A stretch of 64,000 nt of DNA. It comes from Verrucomicrobiia bacterium (GTDB lineage Bacteria > Verrucomicrobiota > Verrucomicrobiia > Limisphaerales > UBA1319). Shown here piece after piece: positions 4,768-56,065 of the stretch. Location of the stretch: assembly GCA_963664225.1 (NCBI GenBank), contig OY760937.1:2144001-2208000 (forward strand). Reading direction: 5' to 3'. Positions within the stretch are counted from its first letter, which is position 1. Each line of letters begins with the position of its first letter. A program made the position numbers and the translations under genes. Below the pieces are notes generated by a model. It was not told the DNA's origin. It worked only from the letters and a program-made list of their open reading frames with translations, and searched no databases.

Positions 4768-5185
4768 AAGTCGTTGCCACTTTCAGCCTCTCCCTGCCTG
4801 CCCCGCGACACGGCGCAGCCCTTTGGGTGAACCGACCCGTGACGCGCGCTGTTTTACGAACCGTAACCTAAGCGATCCCGGGGGAATTTGCGAGTTTTTC
4901 GGCGGGACAATCCGGGTGCATGACAAAATTCACGCGTGCGGAAAACAGCCATGGCCGAGGCTGATTTGAAAGAGTGAATTGCGTTTTGAAGCGCCCTTTT
5001 GTCATGCAGGCGTCACGCAACGGCCGTTTACAGCCGCGTTGACCCTATCAGGGTCTTGAGAATCAAGGCGATCTGCCAATCCCTGACGTGACAGACGGAG
5101 ATATAGCCGCTGACATGCGAATCGGGGTGCTGAGTTGCGCTGCCATCGTTTCATAATAGAATCACCCCGTAGCGGAGACCTTTTA

Positions 5186-7160
5186 GTAGAGTAGGCGAAA
5201 TGGACGGATTGAATGGCCGTGGCCAATGACCGTCGCATTTCGCCCCTCATCGAACCGGACAGGCGGTTTTCCCGCATCCGGCTCTCCGGGGATCATACGT
5301 TGCATCGCTTCGACGTCATCGTTTCCATGCCGCATATTCCGGCATTTGGTATAAACCATAACGCTCATAGAGATCCTCCTTGGGGTATGTGGACCATTGC
5401 GCCCGACTACATCCGTGTTTGCGCCACAACCATCGTTGTAACTTGCTGCTGACGTATTCGTTCATCTGGCCCATCACCTTGGTGCTGTTCCCGTAGTGAA
5501 AGTAACCCTTCCAACCTTTGAGTTTCTTGTTGAGCTCGGGAATCACCTCTCCGATATCACGCCATAGCGTGCTTCGGTTGAGTTTCTCCCGAATCCCGTC
5601 TCGAAACTTCTTCTGGCTCTTGGGATGGGGTTCCACATGCGGATATTTCCATTTCCCCTTCCCCTGTCGCATTGTTAGCGCGAATCCCAAGAATTTGATG
5701 CCATCCTGGCGGAGGTCCACCAAGCGGGTCTTCTTCTCGTTGAGCACTAACTCGCGTTGCTTCAGCCATCGTTCCAGTCGTTCCATCAGTTCCCGTCCCT
5801 GCCCCGGCTGTCCGAGTATCACGAAATCATCCGCGTATCTCACCATCACGGGTTTGAGTTCGCAGCGTTCGTTGACTTCCCAATCCAACTGGTTGAGGTA
5901 TGCATTGGCTAAAATCGGCGATACAACCCCGCCTTGCGGAGTCCCCCGTCGATTCTGACCTTGCCCCCCCTTTGTCCCGCCTTTCCCTGTGTCGCTTTGC
6001 GGTTCATTCACGGGCGCGCGCAGCCATCCTGCGATCAGCTTGAGAATTGTTCCATCGCTGACCCGCTTGGCCACTATGCGCAACAAACGCCTGTGGGGAA
6101 TGCTGTCAAAATACCCGCTTAAGTCCGCGTCTATAACTTCGACGCGTCCTGTCAGCGTAGCCTTCTTGATCGCCTCCATTGCTTGGTGGGCATTGCGTTT
6201 GGGATGATAGGCGTAACTGTTCGGATGACTATCGGCTTCCAGAATCGGCAGCAATACAATCACCACCGCTGTCTGCACCACCCGGTCTTTCACTGTCGGG
6301 ATGCCCAGGGGTCGCAGCTTCCCGTCTCCTTTTGGTATATACACACGCTTCACCGGGCTTGGCCGATACTTCTTCGTGCGTAACTCCTCCAGCAGTTGGT
6401 TCCGCCATTGGTCCCAGGCTTCGTCGCTGGCAAGATAGACGTCGCATGTCTGCCCGTCGATCCCAGCCGCGCCATTGTTGTGCGCCACGGAGGCCATTGC
6501 CGTTTCCAGCACGTCCTTCCGCAGCAGTTCTCCGTAGAGGCTGTAAAACCGATACTTCGGCTCAGCCTTGGCTTTGCAATATAGCGCTCGCTGCAGCTTT
6601 TGAACTTTTATCGGGGTTGTTATCCGTTGAAAAAGTGTTTCCACTCCCTCAAGGCCATCTCCCTGTCCCTCGCTGTTTTGATTCGCTTCGATCCAAGTGC
6701 CTTCCCTTGGCTCCGCCGGGGTTTTGGTCGCCCCAGCTTCTTCGCTACTATGGAAGACTCCGACTTCTCTGGCTGCCCGTGCGGCCTCGGAGGGTGTTCC
6801 TCCTTGCACCGGCGGTTGAGGCTTTATCGCCCCGCCTCCAGAGATCTCCCAGCTTACCTTGGTTTCCCTTCCTGTCGTGTCGCCCTCGCTGACTCCGCCG
6901 GAATCAACAGCGCCCATTTGACGATTTGATGACGCCGCGTTTCTGCCTTCGCCGTTCGGGTAGCGGCTCGGCTTACCGGTTATTTCGGTTTCGGAGCTCA
7001 TTTGATGAGGTTTACTTTCGTTACGACCCGACAGTTCTTTCAGCGTCCCGCTTGTGGTTCGGCCTCACGGCCTCGTCCCGGACGCTGCATTTCGGTCGTG
7101 AACCGTCTAATTCGACCGGCGGGACTTTCACCCACGAGGCTACCAATTTCACTGGCGCAC
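5186..7160 (-). mobile_element. Group II intron, copy 1 (1,975 nt; class E/F-like, no endonuclease domain)
   Basis: 5' GUGCG at 7160; domain V GAGCCGGAUGCGGGAAAACCGCCUGUCCGGUUC; 3' end ...CCUACUCUAC at 5186; internal RT ORF; boundaries agree with the second copy. Confidence 0.95.
5316..7001 (-). CDS. ltrA: Group II intron reverse transcriptase/maturase (true start probably near 6640)
   Basis: RT0 GAAGIDG, RPLGIPTVKDRVVQ, GTPQGGVVSPILAN, YADD, thumb/X domain (LKGWKGYF); no HNH C-terminus. Confidence 0.95.
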   Translation of the reverse strand: MSSETEITGKPSRYPNGEGRNAASSNRQMGAVDSGGVSEGDTTGRETKVSWEISGGGAIKPQPPVQGGTPSEAARAAREVGVFHSSEEAGATKTPAEPREGTWIEANQNSEGQGDGLEGVETLFQRITTPIKVQKLQRALYCKAKAEPKYRFYSLYGELLRKDVLETAMASVAHNNGAAGIDGQTCDVYLASDEAWDQWRNQLLEELRTKKYRPSPVKRVYIPKGDGKLRPLGIPTVKDRVVQTAVVIVLLPILEADSHPNSYAYHPKRNAHQAMEAIKKATLTGRVEVIDADLSGYFDSIPHRRLLRIVAKRVSDGTILKLIAGWLRAPVNEPQSDTGKGGTKGGQGQNRRGTPQGGVVSPILANAYLNQLDWEVNERCELKPVMVRYADDFVILGQPGQGRELMERLERWLKQRELVLNEKKTRLVDLRQDGIKFLGFALTMRQGKGKWKYPHVEPHPKSQKKFRDGIREKLNRSTLWRDIGEVIPELNKKLKGWKGYFHYGNSTKVMGQMNEYVSSKLQRWLWRKHGCSRAQWSTYPKEDLYERYGLYQMPEYAAWKR

Positions 7161-7324
7161 ACCCGAAATCCGAAATAGGAACGGCCCATCTGACGCAATC
7201 ATTTGGCCATCCATGGTTTGAAACCGGCTGTGGAGTATTGGTTTAATACACCTTCGCCGATTGCAAATCATGGCTGACTCAAAGCATTGCATCGTCTTGA
7301 CCATTCTTATTTCGGATTTCGGGT
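7161..7324. mobile_element. 164-bp palindromic MITE, copy 1
   Basis: TIR ACCCGAAATCCGAAATA...TATTTCGGATTTCGGGT; flanked by TTA (5183-5185, beyond the intron) and TTA (7325-7327); reverse complement of copies 2 and 3. Confidence 0.85.
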
Positions 7325-7387
7325 TTAAATGCCTTTTTTAATTTGCAGATCCGGGGCTGCCGCCGCCAACGCTTCAGTCTGTCAGAA

Positions 7388-10117
7388 TCATTTTTCCACA
7401 CGCTGGATGCGCAGGTTGTCGAGGTAGAATGCGGTGTCCGCCTCCGCCGTGCTGCTGAAGCCCAGCCACTGCAATTCCCGGAAATCCTGGCCGCTCATCG
7501 GGAGAGCCTCAAAGGTTTTGGGTTGTTTACCTTCGGGCCTCAGTGTCAAACGAAACACGCGGGCCGCACTCTTTCCCAGTGGTGCCTGTATCTCCACATG
7601 AATCCATTGACGGCTCGGCACGGTTGCCAGAAGCCTGCCGCCAGCACTGACGTTCCCATTTCCTTCGAAGCGCAAGCTCGGGCCGATGTTCTGCGGGTAT
7701 GAACTGGTGTCGCGCCACTCGGTGATGAACTGCGCGTTGGTTTCAAACCAGACATCGAAGCTCTGGCACACCATGCCGGAGACAAGGTGCGGTTCGTAGT
7801 AGAAATGCGGTTGCCAGTTGGGCCGGAGCGTCGCGGAATCCGTCACTTTCAAACTCCGCTGGCCGCTGGCCGCGCGCTCTCCTGTCACCCGGATCGACGC
7901 CCCCTGCTCCTCGCCGCTAACCCGGGCCTGTTCGGGCGCTGCGCCGACCGGCGTTGTCTCAAATCCATCATCCACCTCCAAAGGTTTTGGGGGCGCAGGT
8001 GGTGGAGGCAGCGCGATCCTGGGGCAGCGCGCGTGGCTGGCCTCGTTCACCCAGGCGGAATCGCCATAGAGTCCGACCTGACTGATATCAAACTCCCCGA
8101 ATCCGAGTTCCAGGGCTGGCGAAGTGCTTTGGAGCCGGAAATCGTGTCCGTCAGCATTCACAAACTGAGGATCCGCAATCCGCGAGTGTGTATCCAGCCC
8201 GATGGCCTGCCATTCTCCAATGGTCCGGCGGAAGAACCGGAGCGCCTCGGGCCCCGCCGTATGCCAGTAAACGTTCTCGTCCCAGTCCCCTGGCGATTCT
8301 TTGGCGGCGAGACGTTCGCCAAGCGATTTTTCGCCGTAGTCCACCATGAGTTGGCCCTGCGTGAGGTAAACGATGTTGCGACGGAAGGCATTGGGACGCT
8401 TTTCGAAATAAGGCCACAGCGCCTGGTTGGCGGAGCAGGCGAAGATGTTATTCCGGATGACATGCTCATGGCCCCCGTTGTTGAACATCAGACCGCCACT
8501 CAGCGTGTTATAGACGAGGTTGCTTTCAACGAGGTAATTCCCGCACTGCGCATCCAGGTAAATTCCCCAGCCCAGAGCCGGCGCGGAGTATGGCCAGAGG
8601 TCGTGAAAGACATTGTTGCGAATGACGCTGCCGGGTGAAACCCCGAGGCAGTAAATCAAGCCGGCGTCACTCATGACCCCATGACCCAAATCGTGAACGT
8701 GGTTGAACTCGATGAGGTTGTTGGTCGTGCGATTCGGCTCCAGGCCCCAGTTCCAGCCGACGCTGATCCCGGTGTAGTAGAAGTCGTGAATGTCGTTGTG
8801 CGAAATTCGGTTTCCGCTGCTTTGGGCAACCCAGATTCCGACGCAGCCGGGATAAATCCGTCCACCGTCGAAGAGGTGGTTATTGTCCACAAGAGTGCGA
8901 CTGGTTTCCGCCACGTCCGAACTGGCCATGCGGTCCTCCCCCACCCGGATGCCGCCCGCACCGAGATCGAAGAGGCGATTGCGCTGGATGCGGCAGTCCT
9001 TGCAGCCCCGCCGGAACCAGATCCCATAGGTGCCGATGTGGGCCACTTCACAACCTTCGATGGCGCAGTCCATGGCCCCATCCGCCGTGATGGTGGCCGG
9101 GACTTCCACGGCCGCCTGGGTGCTGCTGTTACCCTTGGCGTCGAGCACCCAGTCCGCGTGATGAAAGGCCAACCCCCGGAGGGTCACGTGCCTCACGAAC
9201 TGGCCCTTCCCGGGATCGCCAGCCAGGGACACAAAGTTGGTCAACACAGGAGCCATAATCGGCGTGTCGCCCAGCCGTTCCCCAGGCATCGGCCAATAGG
9301 TCAGCACGCCCGTTTCGCGGTTGAGATACCATTCCCCCGGGGTGTCGAGCAATTCTCGCGCGTTCTCCACAAAATAACGCTGATGCTCCTCCCAGTATCC
9401 CAAGCCCCACCACTCCTTCATCGGGGCGGCCAATTCGACGATATTGGAAACCGTGTCCACCGACTTGAGCGGGTGGATGGAGTTCTCCCATGAATGCATG
9501 AGCACCAGGTTCACATCGTTGAGCCGTGGCCAGGGCTGAAGATCCCCGGGCGCAAATACGAACCGTTCGCGCGCCACGGGTTTGGCGTTCGGAATCGGCG
9601 GGCCGGGAATCAGCCGCGCGATGCGGTAATAACCGGTGTTCGGGGAACGCGCCCGCTGGCGCCGCTGCCCATCGACAAATAATTGCCGGAAATACCACTG
9701 CCCCGATTTTACTTCAGGGAGGGTGGTCTCCCAAAGGTTCCCGGTCCGATGAAACCCCGTGATGGATCGTCCGCCGGAGAAAACCGGCTTCTCATTCTGG
9801 AACGCGGCATATACCACCGGCCCCTCGGTTGTCCCGGAGTCTTGGGGCTGGAGCACTAACGGTGCTTTCAGGAAATAAGTTCCGCCGCGCACAAAGACCT
9901 GCACCGGCCGACTCCCAATCTCCGACCGCTGCTCCCGGATCCGGTCGCGGGCTCCCGCCAACGAAGACAACGGCCCGTCTGTACGCGCCGCGTTGGGAGC
10001 GGCCAGACGGCCGGACCAACCGTCCTCGCCATTGGTGGAGATGTAGAGCGTGAAAGGTGCCGGGGCGGCGGCTGTCGCGGTGCAGACAGCCAGAAAGAGG
10101 GCCAGAATCAGGTTCAT
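7388..10117 (-). CDS. Secreted right-handed beta-helix glycan-active protein (GH141-like) with C-terminal beta-sandwich
   Basis: Signal peptide from ATG 10117, YISTNGEDGWSG N-terminal motif, parallel beta-helix repeats, WGIYLD, ADPQFVN. Confidence 0.8.
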   Translation of the reverse strand: MNLILALFLAVCTATAAAPAPFTLYISTNGEDGWSGRLAAPNAARTDGPLSSLAGARDRIREQRSEIGSRPVQVFVRGGTYFLKAPLVLQPQDSGTTEGPVVYAAFQNEKPVFSGGRSITGFHRTGNLWETTLPEVKSGQWYFRQLFVDGQRRQRARSPNTGYYRIARLIPGPPIPNAKPVARERFVFAPGDLQPWPRLNDVNLVLMHSWENSIHPLKSVDTVSNIVELAAPMKEWWGLGYWEEHQRYFVENARELLDTPGEWYLNRETGVLTYWPMPGERLGDTPIMAPVLTNFVSLAGDPGKGQFVRHVTLRGLAFHHADWVLDAKGNSSTQAAVEVPATITADGAMDCAIEGCEVAHIGTYGIWFRRGCKDCRIQRNRLFDLGAGGIRVGEDRMASSDVAETSRTLVDNNHLFDGGRIYPGCVGIWVAQSSGNRISHNDIHDFYYTGISVGWNWGLEPNRTTNNLIEFNHVHDLGHGVMSDAGLIYCLGVSPGSVIRNNVFHDLWPYSAPALGWGIYLDAQCGNYLVESNLVYNTLSGGLMFNNGGHEHVIRNNIFACSANQALWPYFEKRPNAFRRNIVYLTQGQLMVDYGEKSLGERLAAKESPGDWDENVYWHTAGPEALRFFRRTIGEWQAIGLDTHSRIADPQFVNADGHDFRLQSTSPALELGFGEFDISQVGLYGDSAWVNEASHARCPRIALPPPPAPPKPLEVDDGFETTPVGAAPEQARVSGEEQGASIRVTGERAASGQRSLKVTDSATLRPNWQPHFYYEPHLVSGMVCQSFDVWFETNAQFITEWRDTSSYPQNIGPSLRFEGNGNVSAGGRLLATVPSRQWIHVEIQAPLGKSAARVFRLTLRPEGKQPKTFEALPMSGQDFRELQWLGFSSTAEADTAFYLDNLRIQRVEK

Positions 10118-42104: not shown

Positions 42105-44079
42105 GTAGAGTAGGCGAAATGGACGGATTGAATGGCCGTGGCCAATGACCGTCGCATTTCGCCCCTCATCGAACCGGACAGGCGGTTTTCCCGCATCCGG
42201 CTCTCCGGGGATCATACGTTGCATCGCTTCGACGTCATCGTTTCCATGCCGCATATTCCGGCATTTGGTATAAACCATAACGCTCATAGAGATCCTCCTT
42301 GGGGTATGTGGACCATTGCGCCCGACTACATCCGTGTTTGCGCCACAACCATCGTTGTAACTTGCTGCTGACGTATTCGTTCATCTGGCCCATCACCTTG
42401 GTGCTGTTCCCGTAGTGAAAGTAACCCTTCCAACCTTTGAGTTTCTTGTTGAGCTCGGGAATCACCTCTCCGATATCACGCCATAGCGTGCTTCGGTTGA
42501 GTTTCTCCCGAATCCCGTCTCGAAACTTCTTCTGGCTCTTGGGATGGGGTTCCACATGCGGATATTTCCATTTCCCCTTCCCCTGTCGCATTGTTAGCGC
42601 GAATCCCAAGAATTTGATGCCATCCTGGCGGAGGTCCACCAAGCGGGTCTTCTTCTCGTTGAGCACTAACTCGCGTTGCTTCAGCCATCGTTCCAGTCGT
42701 TCCATCAGTTCCCGTCCCTGCCCCGGCTGTCCGAGTATCACGAAATCATCCGCGTATCTCACCATCACGGGTTTGAGTTCGCAGCGTTCGTTGACTTCCC
42801 AATCCAACTGGTTGAGGTATGCATTGGCTAAAATCGGCGATACAACCCCGCCTTGCGGAGTCCCCCGTCGATTCTGACCTTGCCCCCCCTTTGTCCCGCC
42901 TTTCCCTGTGTCGCTTTGCGGTTCATTCACGGGCGCGCGCAGCCATCCTGCGATCAGCTTGAGAATTGTTCCATCGCTGACCCGCTTGGCCACTATGCGC
43001 AACAAACGCCTGTGGGGAATGCTGTCAAAATACCCGCTTAAGTCCGCGTCTATAACTTCGACGCGTCCTGTCAGCGTAGCCTTCTTGATCGCCTCCATTG
43101 CTTGGTGGGCATTGCGTTTGGGATGATAGGCGTAACTGTTCGGATGACTATCGGCTTCCAGAATCGGCAGCAATACAATCACCACCGCTGTCTGCACCAC
43201 CCGGTCTTTCACTGTCGGGATGCCCAGGGGTCGCAGCTTCCCGTCTCCTTTTGGTATATACACACGCTTCACCGGGCTTGGCCGATACTTCTTCGTGCGT
43301 AACTCCTCCAGCAGTTGGTTCCGCCATTGGTCCCAGGCTTCGTCGCTGGCAAGATAGACGTCGCATGTCTGCCCGTCGATCCCAGCCGCGCCATTGTTGT
43401 GCGCCACGGAGGCCATTGCCGTTTCCAGCACGTCCTTCCGCAGCAGTTCTCCGTAGAGGCTGTAAAACCGATACTTCGGCTCAGCCTTGGCTTTGCAATA
43501 TAGCGCTCGCTGCAGCTTTTGAACTTTTATCGGGGTTGTTATCCGTTGAAAAAGTGTTTCCACTCCCTCAAGGCCATCTCCCTGTCCCTCGCTGTTTTGA
43601 TTCGCTTCGATCCAAGTGCCTTCCCTTGGCTCCGCCGGGGTTTTGGTCGCCCCAGCTTCTTCGCTACTATGGAAGACTCCGACTTCTCTGGCTGCCCGTG
43701 CGGCCTCGGAGGGTGTTCCTCCTTGCACCGGCGGTTGAGGCTTTATCGCCCCGCCTCCAGAGATCTCCCAGCTTACCTTGGTTTCCCTTCCTGTCGTGTC
43801 GCCCTCGCTGACTCCGCCGGAATCAACAGCGCCCATTTGACGATTTGATGACGCCGCGTTTCTGCCTTCGCCGTTCGGGTAGCGGCTCGGCTTACCGGTT
43901 ATTTCGGTTTCGGAGCTCATTTGATGAGGTTTACTTTCGTTACGACCCGACAGTTCTTTCAGCGTCCCGCTTGTGGTTCGGCCTCACGGCCTCGTCCCGG
44001 ACGCTGCATTTCGGTCGTGAACCGTCTAATTCGACCGGCGGGACTTTCACCCACGAGGCTACCAATTTCACTGGCGCAC
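42105..44079 (-). mobile_element. Group II intron, copy 2 (apparently identical to copy 1)
   Basis: Same GUGCG start, DV/DVI end and internal ORF translations at a constant offset of 36,919 nt. Confidence 0.95.
42235..43920 (-). CDS. ltrA: Group II intron reverse transcriptase/maturase
   Basis: Protein identical to 5316..7001. Confidence 0.95.
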   Translation of the reverse strand: MSSETEITGKPSRYPNGEGRNAASSNRQMGAVDSGGVSEGDTTGRETKVSWEISGGGAIKPQPPVQGGTPSEAARAAREVGVFHSSEEAGATKTPAEPREGTWIEANQNSEGQGDGLEGVETLFQRITTPIKVQKLQRALYCKAKAEPKYRFYSLYGELLRKDVLETAMASVAHNNGAAGIDGQTCDVYLASDEAWDQWRNQLLEELRTKKYRPSPVKRVYIPKGDGKLRPLGIPTVKDRVVQTAVVIVLLPILEADSHPNSYAYHPKRNAHQAMEAIKKATLTGRVEVIDADLSGYFDSIPHRRLLRIVAKRVSDGTILKLIAGWLRAPVNEPQSDTGKGGTKGGQGQNRRGTPQGGVVSPILANAYLNQLDWEVNERCELKPVMVRYADDFVILGQPGQGRELMERLERWLKQRELVLNEKKTRLVDLRQDGIKFLGFALTMRQGKGKWKYPHVEPHPKSQKKFRDGIREKLNRSTLWRDIGEVIPELNKKLKGWKGYFHYGNSTKVMGQMNEYVSSKLQRWLWRKHGCSRAQWSTYPKEDLYERYGLYQMPEYAAWKR

Positions 44080-44243
44080 ACCCGAAATCCGAAATAAGAA
44101 TGGTCAAGACGATGCAATGCTTTGAGACAGCCATGATTTGCAATCGGCGAAGGTGTATTAAACCAATACTCCACAGCCGGTTTCAAACCATGGATGGCCA
44201 AATGATTGCGTCAGATGGGCCGTTCCTATTTCGGATTTCGGGT
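44080..44243. mobile_element. 164-bp palindromic MITE, copy 2
   Basis: Same TIRs; inverted relative to copy 1; TTA at 42102-42104 and at 44244-44246. Confidence 0.85.
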
Positions 44244-44733: not shown

Positions 44734-44810
44734 TGGAGCGAGCGAAGGGATTTGAACCCTCGACAATCACCTTGGCAAGGTGACACTCTACCAGGCTGAG
44801 TTACGCTCGC
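44734..44810 (-). tRNA. tRNA-Gly (GCC)
   Basis: GCGAGCGTAACTCAGCCTGGTAGAGTGTCACCTTGCCAAGGTGATTGTCGAGGGTTCAAATCCCTTCGCTCGCTCCA: full cloverleaf with encoded CCA. Confidence 0.98.
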
Positions 44811-55901: not shown

Positions 55902-56065
55902 AACCGAAATCCGAAATAAGAATGGTCAAGACGATGCAATGCTTTGAGTCAGCCATGATTTGCAATCGGCGAAGGTGTATTAAACCAATACTCCACAGCC
56001 GGTTTCAAACCATGGATGGCCAAATGATTGCGTCAGATGGGCCGTTCCTATTTCGGATTTCGGGT
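55902..56065. mobile_element. 164-bp palindromic MITE, copy 3 (intron-free)
   Basis: Near-identical to copies 1 and 2; TTA at 55899-55901 and 56066-56068; left TIR reads AACCG instead of ACCCG. Confidence 0.85.

Follow-up and report, generated by a model that had tools for sequence, protein, structure and literature searches.

According to one review, group II introns of classes C, D, E, and F, as well as some CL introns, lack an endonuclease domain (PMC4424553). RmInt1 has been described within ISRm2011-2, an insertion sequence (IS) of the IS630 family whose spread it blocks, with a linker of 1 nt (PMC5894124). Furthermore, in Sinorhizobium meliloti GR4, all copies of RmInt2 were located in the inverted repeats of ISRm17, which offer two putative sites on opposite replication strands; the linker occupies positions -8 and -9, the intron-binding site 2 (IBS2) positions -10 to -14, four pairs with the exon-binding site 2 (EBS2) suffice for homing, and the lagging orientation is preferred (PMC4615759). 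In the present study, we analyzed a stretch of 64,000 nucleotides (hereafter, the window) from the genome of a Verrucomicrobiia bacterium (GenBank assembly GCA_963664225.1, contig OY760937.1, positions 2,144,001 to 2,208,000 of the forward strand), where a complete group II intron of 1975 nt (GUGCG...CUAC) lies on the minus strand at positions 5186-7160. A preliminary description of this DNA had singled out 45 bases of the intron (6951-6995), and we consider it very probable that they hold the two guide sequences of a mobile, endonuclease-less intron that homes to the repeat ends of a miniature inverted-repeat transposable element (MITE) and of an IS of the IS1380 family.

The ribozyme scaffold, domain V/VI, a reverse transcriptase (RT) with maturase, and exon-binding sites (EBS1 and EBS2) complementary to the 5' exon were all found in this intron, consistent with membership in group II. 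In Rfam, RF02005 (group-II-D1D4-6) matched positions 6883-7128 with 54.9 bits (cut-off 49), covering model positions 1-225 of 225, and RF00029 (domains V/VI) matched positions 5186-5286 with 49.3 bits (cut-off 40), in an alignment that leaves unpaired, as a bulged branch point, the A of CUAC, 7 nt before the intron 3' end. On the minus strand, the intron starts with GUGCG at 7160, and its last nucleotide is 5186 (…CCUACUCUAC). A second, identical copy was identified at 42105-44079 of the window, also on the minus strand, by Rfam scan, self-comparison of the window, and BLAST, the block 5180-7177 being identical at that locus (44079-42105). In the whole genome, which is assembled as one 5.78-Mb contig, BLAST recovered 19 intron copies (this locus being one of them), each 100% identical over 1975 nt.

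The longest open reading frame (ORF) of the intron-encoded protein, with 561 codons (5316-7001, minus strand) and an RT/maturase core from about 6629, matched PF00078 (RT, 1.8e-34) and PF08388 (maturase, 1e-13) in Pfam, and the group II RT/maturase family TIGR04416 of NCBIfam with 357 bits (cut-off 300). No endonuclease (HNH) domain was found in this protein, for which Pfam gave only RT and GIIM, and which ends about 25 residues past GIIM. Its relatives number thousands; the closest among the matches listed are 68-96% identical, lie mostly on 2-kb contigs, and carry the label Verrucomicrobia. Indirectly, the 19 identical copies and the pattern of their insertion, both read from genomic sequence, point to an intron that may be capable of self-splicing and retrohoming. 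Contigs of four public runs (X3, X4, X6, and X10) on positions 4900-7500 presented no join of 5185 to 7161 and, as contigs, are uninformative on an empty site or a spliced junction.

Guide loops of domain I and their exons

The stem-loop and the repeat-matching segment reported in the preliminary description were confirmed by direct reading, since the minus strand at 6951-6967 is GCCG-CUACCCGAA-CGGC, followed by GAAGG, and at 6981-6995 it is UCCGAAACCGAAAUA. The 5' exon ends in ...CCUAUUUCGGAUUUCGGGU (7161-7179), and its last 17 nt (7161-7177, minus strand), which constitute the target, coincide with the outer end of the inverted repeat of the MITE. The loop ACCCGAA (6955-6961), which had been proposed as EBS1, pairs with UUCGGGU at exon positions -7 to -1 (IBS1, 7161-7167) in 7/7 Watson-Crick pairs, whereas EBS2, CCGAAAUA (6981-6988), pairs with UAUUUCGG at -17 to -10 (IBS2, 7170-7177) in 8/8 pairs, leaving a 2-nt linker at -8 and -9 (7168-7169) before the EBS1 target. 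In a chance control, shuffling the 12-nt loop that contains EBS2 yielded a Watson-Crick run of 8 bp against exon positions -8 to -19 in 29 of 20000 trials, and random loops did so in 6 of 20000.

The modeling of domain I, suggested earlier as a check, agreed with these positions. In the Rfam alignment, CUACCCGAA is a terminal loop, and AAACCGAAAUAA (6980-6991, minus strand) is the unpaired 5' side of an internal loop about 20 nt upstream of the EBS1 hairpin loop, bounded on the outside by the stem GAGCUCCG/CGGAGUC and on the inside by CCGG/CCGG. The 5' strand of the outer stem, GAGCUCCG, lies at 6992-6999 and pairs with CGGAGU at 6892-6897 (both on the minus strand). In order to evaluate the fold, a region of 117 nt was aligned from the window and 13 related introns (14 sequences), where the Rfam-derived structure had 92.2% of cells paired against 86.7% in shuffles, with 0 of 500 shuffles as high, and slid partners reached 30-45%. 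RNAalifold independently predicted the outer stem and the EBS1 hairpin from the same sequences. The outer stem, recovered likewise by pair counts and in the single-sequence fold, is 100% paired, and one of its pairs covaries (column 9:116, with CG in 10 sequences, UA in two, AU in one, and GC in one, the window having UA). The EBS1 hairpin helix is 94.6% paired, with two pairs changed on both sides according to RNAalifold and pair counts, and it also appears in the single-sequence fold.

Co-variation of the guide loops with their targets in related introns, another check that had been named, was evaluated on the DNA of 80 genome loci and 80 metagenome loci, in which domain I was located with nhmmer and then aligned. 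Two contigs that wrap on themselves (L081 and L083) were left out of the exon analysis, and 12 distinct introns remained. A run of 6-7 pairs from exon position -1 was formed by the EBS1 loop in 11 of these 12 introns; the mean run was 6.58 with the own exon versus 2.95 over 132 foreign pairings, and none of 5000 permutations reached the observed sum. Examples of loop and exon are ACCUUAA/UUAAGGU (L090), ACCUGAA/UUCAGGU (L088), GCGUCAA/UUGACGC (L086), GUUUGAC/GUCAAAC (L007), and GGGCUGA/UCAGCCC (L087). For the EBS2 loop, taken as the 12 nt after the outer stem and compared with exon positions -8 to -19, the mean run was 5.33 with the own exon versus 3.92 with foreign exons (1 of 5000 permutations), as in AAGGCAAA/UUUGCUUU (L086) and AAGUU/AACUU (L097). 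Loop position 4 is paired to exon position -10 in 5/12 introns, including that of the window, and in 10/12 the best run deviates from this register by no more than two positions; in the same register, CCGAAAUA meets -10 to -17 in the window. Thus, EBS1 and EBS2 are assigned with comparative support, EBS2 being read as CCGAAAUA in a single register.

The same data bear on a longer or two-register EBS2, an idea of the preliminary description, by which UCCGAAA (6989-6995) would pair with -9 to -15 in addition to CCGAAAUA with -10 to -17, mirroring the tandem AUUUCGG of the target. UCCGAAA is indeed complementary to UUUCGGA (-15 to -9) in 7/7 pairs, this first register holds at least five contiguous pairs at every site, and UCGGA at -13 to -9 is invariant in 19/19 targets, while -14 to -17 vary. 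Nevertheless, UCCG (6992-6995) belongs to the outer stem that is fully paired in the 14 sequences, and its U is explained by that stem, because the window has a UA pair at column 9:116, where the partner A changed together with the U. Moreover, the 7-mer equivalent to UCCGAAA in relatives shows no better fit to own exons than to foreign ones (mean 4.08 versus 3.82; 973 of 5000 permutations), and the invariance of -9, spread over only six target families, is explicable by common descent of the repeats. Consequently, UCCGAAA was rejected as EBS2 on the covarying stem and the null exon test, and we regard an extended or double EBS2 as very improbable.

Some additional features of the related introns were recorded. 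Apparent non-canonical 5' ends, judged by the pairing of EBS1 with the exon, were observed in L002, L003, and L094, which start with GCAGCAG, and in L001 and L007, which start with GUUGCG, instead of GUGCG. L167 (G034:C102:13087-13781, minus strand), from a genome of the same order, is a derivative of about 700 nt that belongs to the same intron family and has no ORF; EBS1 (GCCGUAA) again fits the exon of that locus (UUACGGC), and the site lacks an inverted repeat. In a wetland metatranscriptome (RNA library, run X10), a contig spans positions 6908-7088 with 17 differences, 10 of which fall in EBS1 (6956-6961) and the EBS2 loop (6979-6988); it represents a relative with other guide loops on a conserved scaffold, and its presence in an RNA library is no proof of transcription.

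The RT reading frame is open from a conserved AUG (6999-7001, minus strand; intron position about 160, in AAUGAGC of a domain I stem) through domains I-III and on into the RT, at about 6629. Among 13 introns (L081-L097 and L001-L007 range), 11 have 0 stops in 124 codons of this frame, the two remaining frames having 52 and 67 stops altogether, and in the two exceptions an early indel shifts the open frame. Counted from this AUG, EBS2 corresponds to codons 4-8 and EBS1 to codons 14-16, and the ORFs of protein relatives are about 558 aa long. On sequence grounds, the guide loops themselves may hence be translated.

Target elements and strand of insertion

The 17-mer TATTTCGGATTTCGGGT occurs six times in the window at up to three mismatches, versus 0.15 expected, and these occurrences are the ends of three inverted-repeat elements of 164 bp. 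MITE copy 1 (7161-7324) has the intron at its left end and is flanked by a TTA duplication, the left one (5183-5185) serving as 3' exon positions +1 to +3 (UAA on the intron strand) and the right one lying at 7325-7327. MITE copy 2 (44080-44243), found by inverted repeats and by self-comparison of the window, is inverted relative to copy 1 and bears the intron at its other arm; abutting opposite MITE arms, the two intron copies are independent insertions. MITE copy 3 (55902-56065) has no intron, and its inferred lagging-side end has a G to T change at -2 (TCGGATTTCGGTT).

The parent of this MITE is a 1534-bp element with a 474-codon frame that matched NF033539 (IS1380 family) with 227 bits (cut-off 180) and PF13701 at 2.4e-27. 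All five copies of this IS have the ends ACCCGAACUCCGA… and a 3-bp TTA/TAA duplication, the usual target duplication of the IS1380 family being 4-5 bp. The MITE status of the 164-bp element is indicated by its size, its 17 complete copies, the identity of 12 of its outermost 13 nt with the IS ends, and the same TTA/TAA duplication. It was not found in 40 related genomes (0/40), whose assemblies are fragmented, so that repeats may be missing from them.

Regarding the 19 intron copies, all 5' exons end in UCGGA(U/G)UUCGGGU, and all 3' exons start with T (TTAA in nine copies and TAAA in 10). Either arm of the 164-bp element is abutted by 13 copies and an end of the 1534-bp element by four, whereas at the other two, sites d and f, a partner repeat is absent up to 3 kb away. 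Therefore, the complementarity to the MITE terminal repeat stood, as previously claimed, but the target proved wider, since it includes the last 17 nt of the MITE repeat as well as the ends of the IS1380-family parent and two sites without a partner repeat. When the introns were removed in silico, 22 complete elements (17 MITEs and five ISs) were obtained, 21 of which are flanked by matching copies of TTA or TAA. The intron is always placed between the last base of the element and the duplication, and never at both ends of one of these elements. As a result of this position, the +1 T comes with the target that the transposase itself prefers, and the element is left whole.

Replication direction was inferred from dnaA (2.99 Mb), GC skew, and gene-strand bias, and two ambiguous zones (2.98-3.2 and 1.05-1.45 Mb) were set apart. 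A positive GC skew extends from about 3.65 Mb past the end of the contig to about 1.45 Mb, and the skew is near zero from 1.45 to 3.65 Mb; summed along the contig, the strand bias of long ORFs is lowest near 3.15 Mb and highest near 1.2 Mb. Together with dnaA, these signals were taken to mark origin and terminus. Among 51 exact target sites, those on the inferred lagging-strand template were occupied in 18 cases and empty in six, while those on the leading-strand template were occupied in none and empty in 22 (Fisher, 5e-8); the ambiguous zones hold one occupied and four empty sites. Between 1.66 and 2.2 Mb, 6/6 intact lagging-side sites are filled, and the only intron-less MITE of this segment is copy 3 of the window, with its mismatch at -2 on the lagging-side end, which makes it a natural mutant. 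In this context, the genome provides a clean natural record of target choice by an endonuclease-less intron, with the sites divided half per strand and the -2 point mutant empty.

The arrangement of the elements could also be read as the spread of a MITE-plus-intron composite moved by the transposase, and not by retrohoming, since the TTA/TAA duplication flanks MITE and intron together; this arrangement alone, however, is silent on a later arrival of the intron. The far end of the intron quoted above is unlike the inverted repeat, and the intron abuts either MITE arm, both IS ends, and MITE-less sites, which speaks against a composite. In addition, the MITE copies are 92-100% identical to one another, whereas the introns are all identical, and the strand pattern tracks replication direction. 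For these reasons, we consider a mobile composite extremely unlikely.

Other observations on the repeats are the following. Two of the five IS1380-family copies (C1:828086-829619 and C1:2984736-2986269 of the genome, outside the window) are inserted within MITE copies, and intron, IS, and MITE are nested three deep at these two loci, because the 3' exons run into MITE-internal sequence. A shorter MITE variant is indicated by a contig of runs X3, X4, and X6, where 7202 is followed by eight other letters and then by 7304. A tRNA gene (65.9 bits) is located at 44737-44810 on the minus strand, roughly 500 bp away from the intron-bearing MITE copy 2. The very unequal replichores make a recent rearrangement between repeats possible.

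Probable route of homing, and relatives at transposon tips

From the observed structure, complementarity, co-variation, copy census, and strand pattern we infer a route of reverse splicing with priming at the fork, in an intron still active today; the steps are drawn from the published behavior of endonuclease-less introns (PMC5894124; PMC8914252). The excised intron RNA, together with the RT/maturase, would find its DNA target through EBS1 with the last 7 bases of the repeat and EBS2 with -10 to -17, skipping -8 and -9. Reverse splicing would then take place exactly between the last base of the element and the T of the TTA/TAA duplication. As the protein has no endonuclease, insertion is expected on a single-stranded lagging-strand template, at a replication fork, and the inserted intron would be copied from a nascent lagging-strand primer. 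All 19 copies would lie at such ends because EBS1 and EBS2 pair with the outermost 17 bases of the end repeat; and since the same sequence is present on both strands of each element, one end always qualifies, and only that end would be filled.

Several observations weigh against homing by these two guide loops. The inner helix CCGG/CCGG of the comparative model has only 72.7% of cells paired, and when the window region is folded as a single sequence, ACCG of the EBS2 loop joins CGGU to form a hairpin of 4 bp, in a fold no better than shuffles (z -0.76). EBS2 pairing is perfect at only 14/19 sites (MITE ends and one MITE-like site); at IS ends it amounts to 7/8 with an internal mismatch (three sites) or to five contiguous pairs (one site), and at site d to four contiguous pairs. 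An EBS3 or delta pairing to the +1 T was sought, +1 being T in nine relatives and C only in L001 and L007, a variation too small to point to a column, and EBS3 was not located. L091, at the same kind of end as the introns of this genome, has an EBS1 (ACCUAAA) that pairs only four bases from -1. The permutation figures overstate independence, since the introns compared are relatives of one another and four of the targets are alike. Furthermore, the strand argument depends on an inferred replication direction, with replichores of unequal inferred size (about 1.9 and 3.9 Mb) and with one intron copy less than 5 kb from dnaA, in a stretch to which no direction could be assigned. Even so, homing guided by EBS1 and EBS2 is the reading that we retain, at the strength given at the outset, and the assignment of the exon-binding loops with comparative support means that the intron could be retargeted or tested directly.

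Placement at the tip of a transposon is not limited to this genome. At 11 related loci, the upstream DNA was searched for the final 16 nt of the exon in inverted orientation, with a match at four, namely L002 (66 bp, no mismatches, TAG on both sides), L085 (165 bp, one mismatch), L097 (178 bp, one mismatch), and L082 (198 bp, three mismatches, with the same left arm as L085); moreover, the tip at L088 corresponds to the second arm of the L085 family. L091, from an unrelated metagenome and with a protein 54% identical, follows …UUUCGGAGUUCGGGU, an IS-type end of this genome, and BLAST of its flanks against this genome revealed no likeness beyond the terminal motif. By comparison, L007 lies inside a tandem array of a 10-nt motif, and both L084 and the ORF-less derivative of G034 occupy sites without a repeat. 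Among more distant introns whose 5' end is defined, three of 18 have an inverted exon-tip copy upstream, one of them in a generally palindromic stretch, which is suggestive only. The upstream ORFs of the relatives are ordinary genes (6PGD, an acyltransferase, an ImpB-type polymerase, and a glycosyl hydrolase), with no transposases among them; accordingly, these relatives stand beside short repeat elements or at ectopic sites, and not in full ISs. In this clade, insertion at tips is frequent, though not universal.

These loci are also relevant to the idea that, in the manner of class C introns, the intron recognizes a hairpin formed by the single-stranded MITE and uses the 3' base of this hairpin for insertion, the EBS2 match being incidental. 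A long inverted repeat has its 3' base precisely where the intron is inserted, and the introns at L002, L085, L082, and L097 hold the same position in their own inverted-repeat elements. Such a hairpin is difficult to reconcile with the four copies at IS ends, where the partner repeat is 1534 bp off, and with sites d and f, which lack a partner within 3 kb; furthermore, EBS2 co-varies with the exons of relatives, and the hairpin would have to compete with the two guide loops for its 3' arm, to which both pair. We therefore judge recognition of a hairpin to be very improbable, and base pairing of the guide loops with the end repeat remains the preferred explanation.

A broader proposal is that the clade is a dedicated parasite of transposon tips, which inserts one base outside the element and whose EBS1 and EBS2 diverge in step with the MITE and IS repeats. 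It draws on relatives with proteins 54-78% identical at the 3' tips of 66-198-bp elements (the four loci of 11) and on L091, and we advance it tentatively, as a possibility that we are inclined to doubt. If it were true, the transposon would be left intact and would go on making new homing sites.

Comparison with RmInt1, RmInt2, and class C introns

Class C (IIC) introns at terminator or attC hairpins share with the intron described here the lack of an endonuclease and a position at the 3' base of an inverted repeat (PMC4424553). Unlike class C introns as portrayed there, this intron presents a full EBS1 and an exon-covarying EBS2, it also uses targets that have no partner arm close by, and its ribozyme belongs to RF02005. 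With RmInt1, it has in common the absence of an endonuclease, EBS/IBS-guided homing into a multi-copy IS, and the use of the lagging-strand template; unlike RmInt1, it lies beyond the last base of the element, which stays whole.

In the literature on group II introns together with MITEs that we searched, including a paper on Thiomargarita, no description of homing to MITE ends was found. The ribozyme family also separates this intron from what would be expected of class D (IIB3), since it belongs to RF02005, whereas on the plasmid pSymA of S. meliloti 1021 RF02005 gave no match and RF01999 matched, with 113.7 bits, an intron whose ORF has 419 aa, as stated for RmInt1; we presume this pSymA intron to be RmInt1-like from its host and ORF length only. 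RmInt2 is placed in class D (IIB3), and the C-terminal motif published for that class, LX3AX3PXLF[V/A]HW, was absent from the 561-aa ORF in a regular-expression search (PMC4615759). For all its likeness to RmInt2 in behavior, the intron of this genome falls outside class D.

Indeed, the intron extends an already described kind, the RmInt2-like homing to IS inverted repeats known from Sinorhizobium. This intron and RmInt2 alike have no endonuclease domain, target an IS inverted repeat with two sites on opposite strands, use a 2-nt linker with IBS2 starting at -10, tolerate a short EBS2 pairing, are biased toward the lagging-strand template, and occur in multiple copies. The intron of this genome differs in having mostly MITE targets, an IS of the IS1380 family, and exact insertion at the tip, the place of RmInt2 within the ISRm17 repeat being outside this comparison. 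The MITE targets, the insertion exactly at the element tip, and the clear strand census are what is added here and may be of use. In brief, the strategy of RmInt2 is extended to another ribozyme family, another phylum, and an IS1380-type element together with its MITE.

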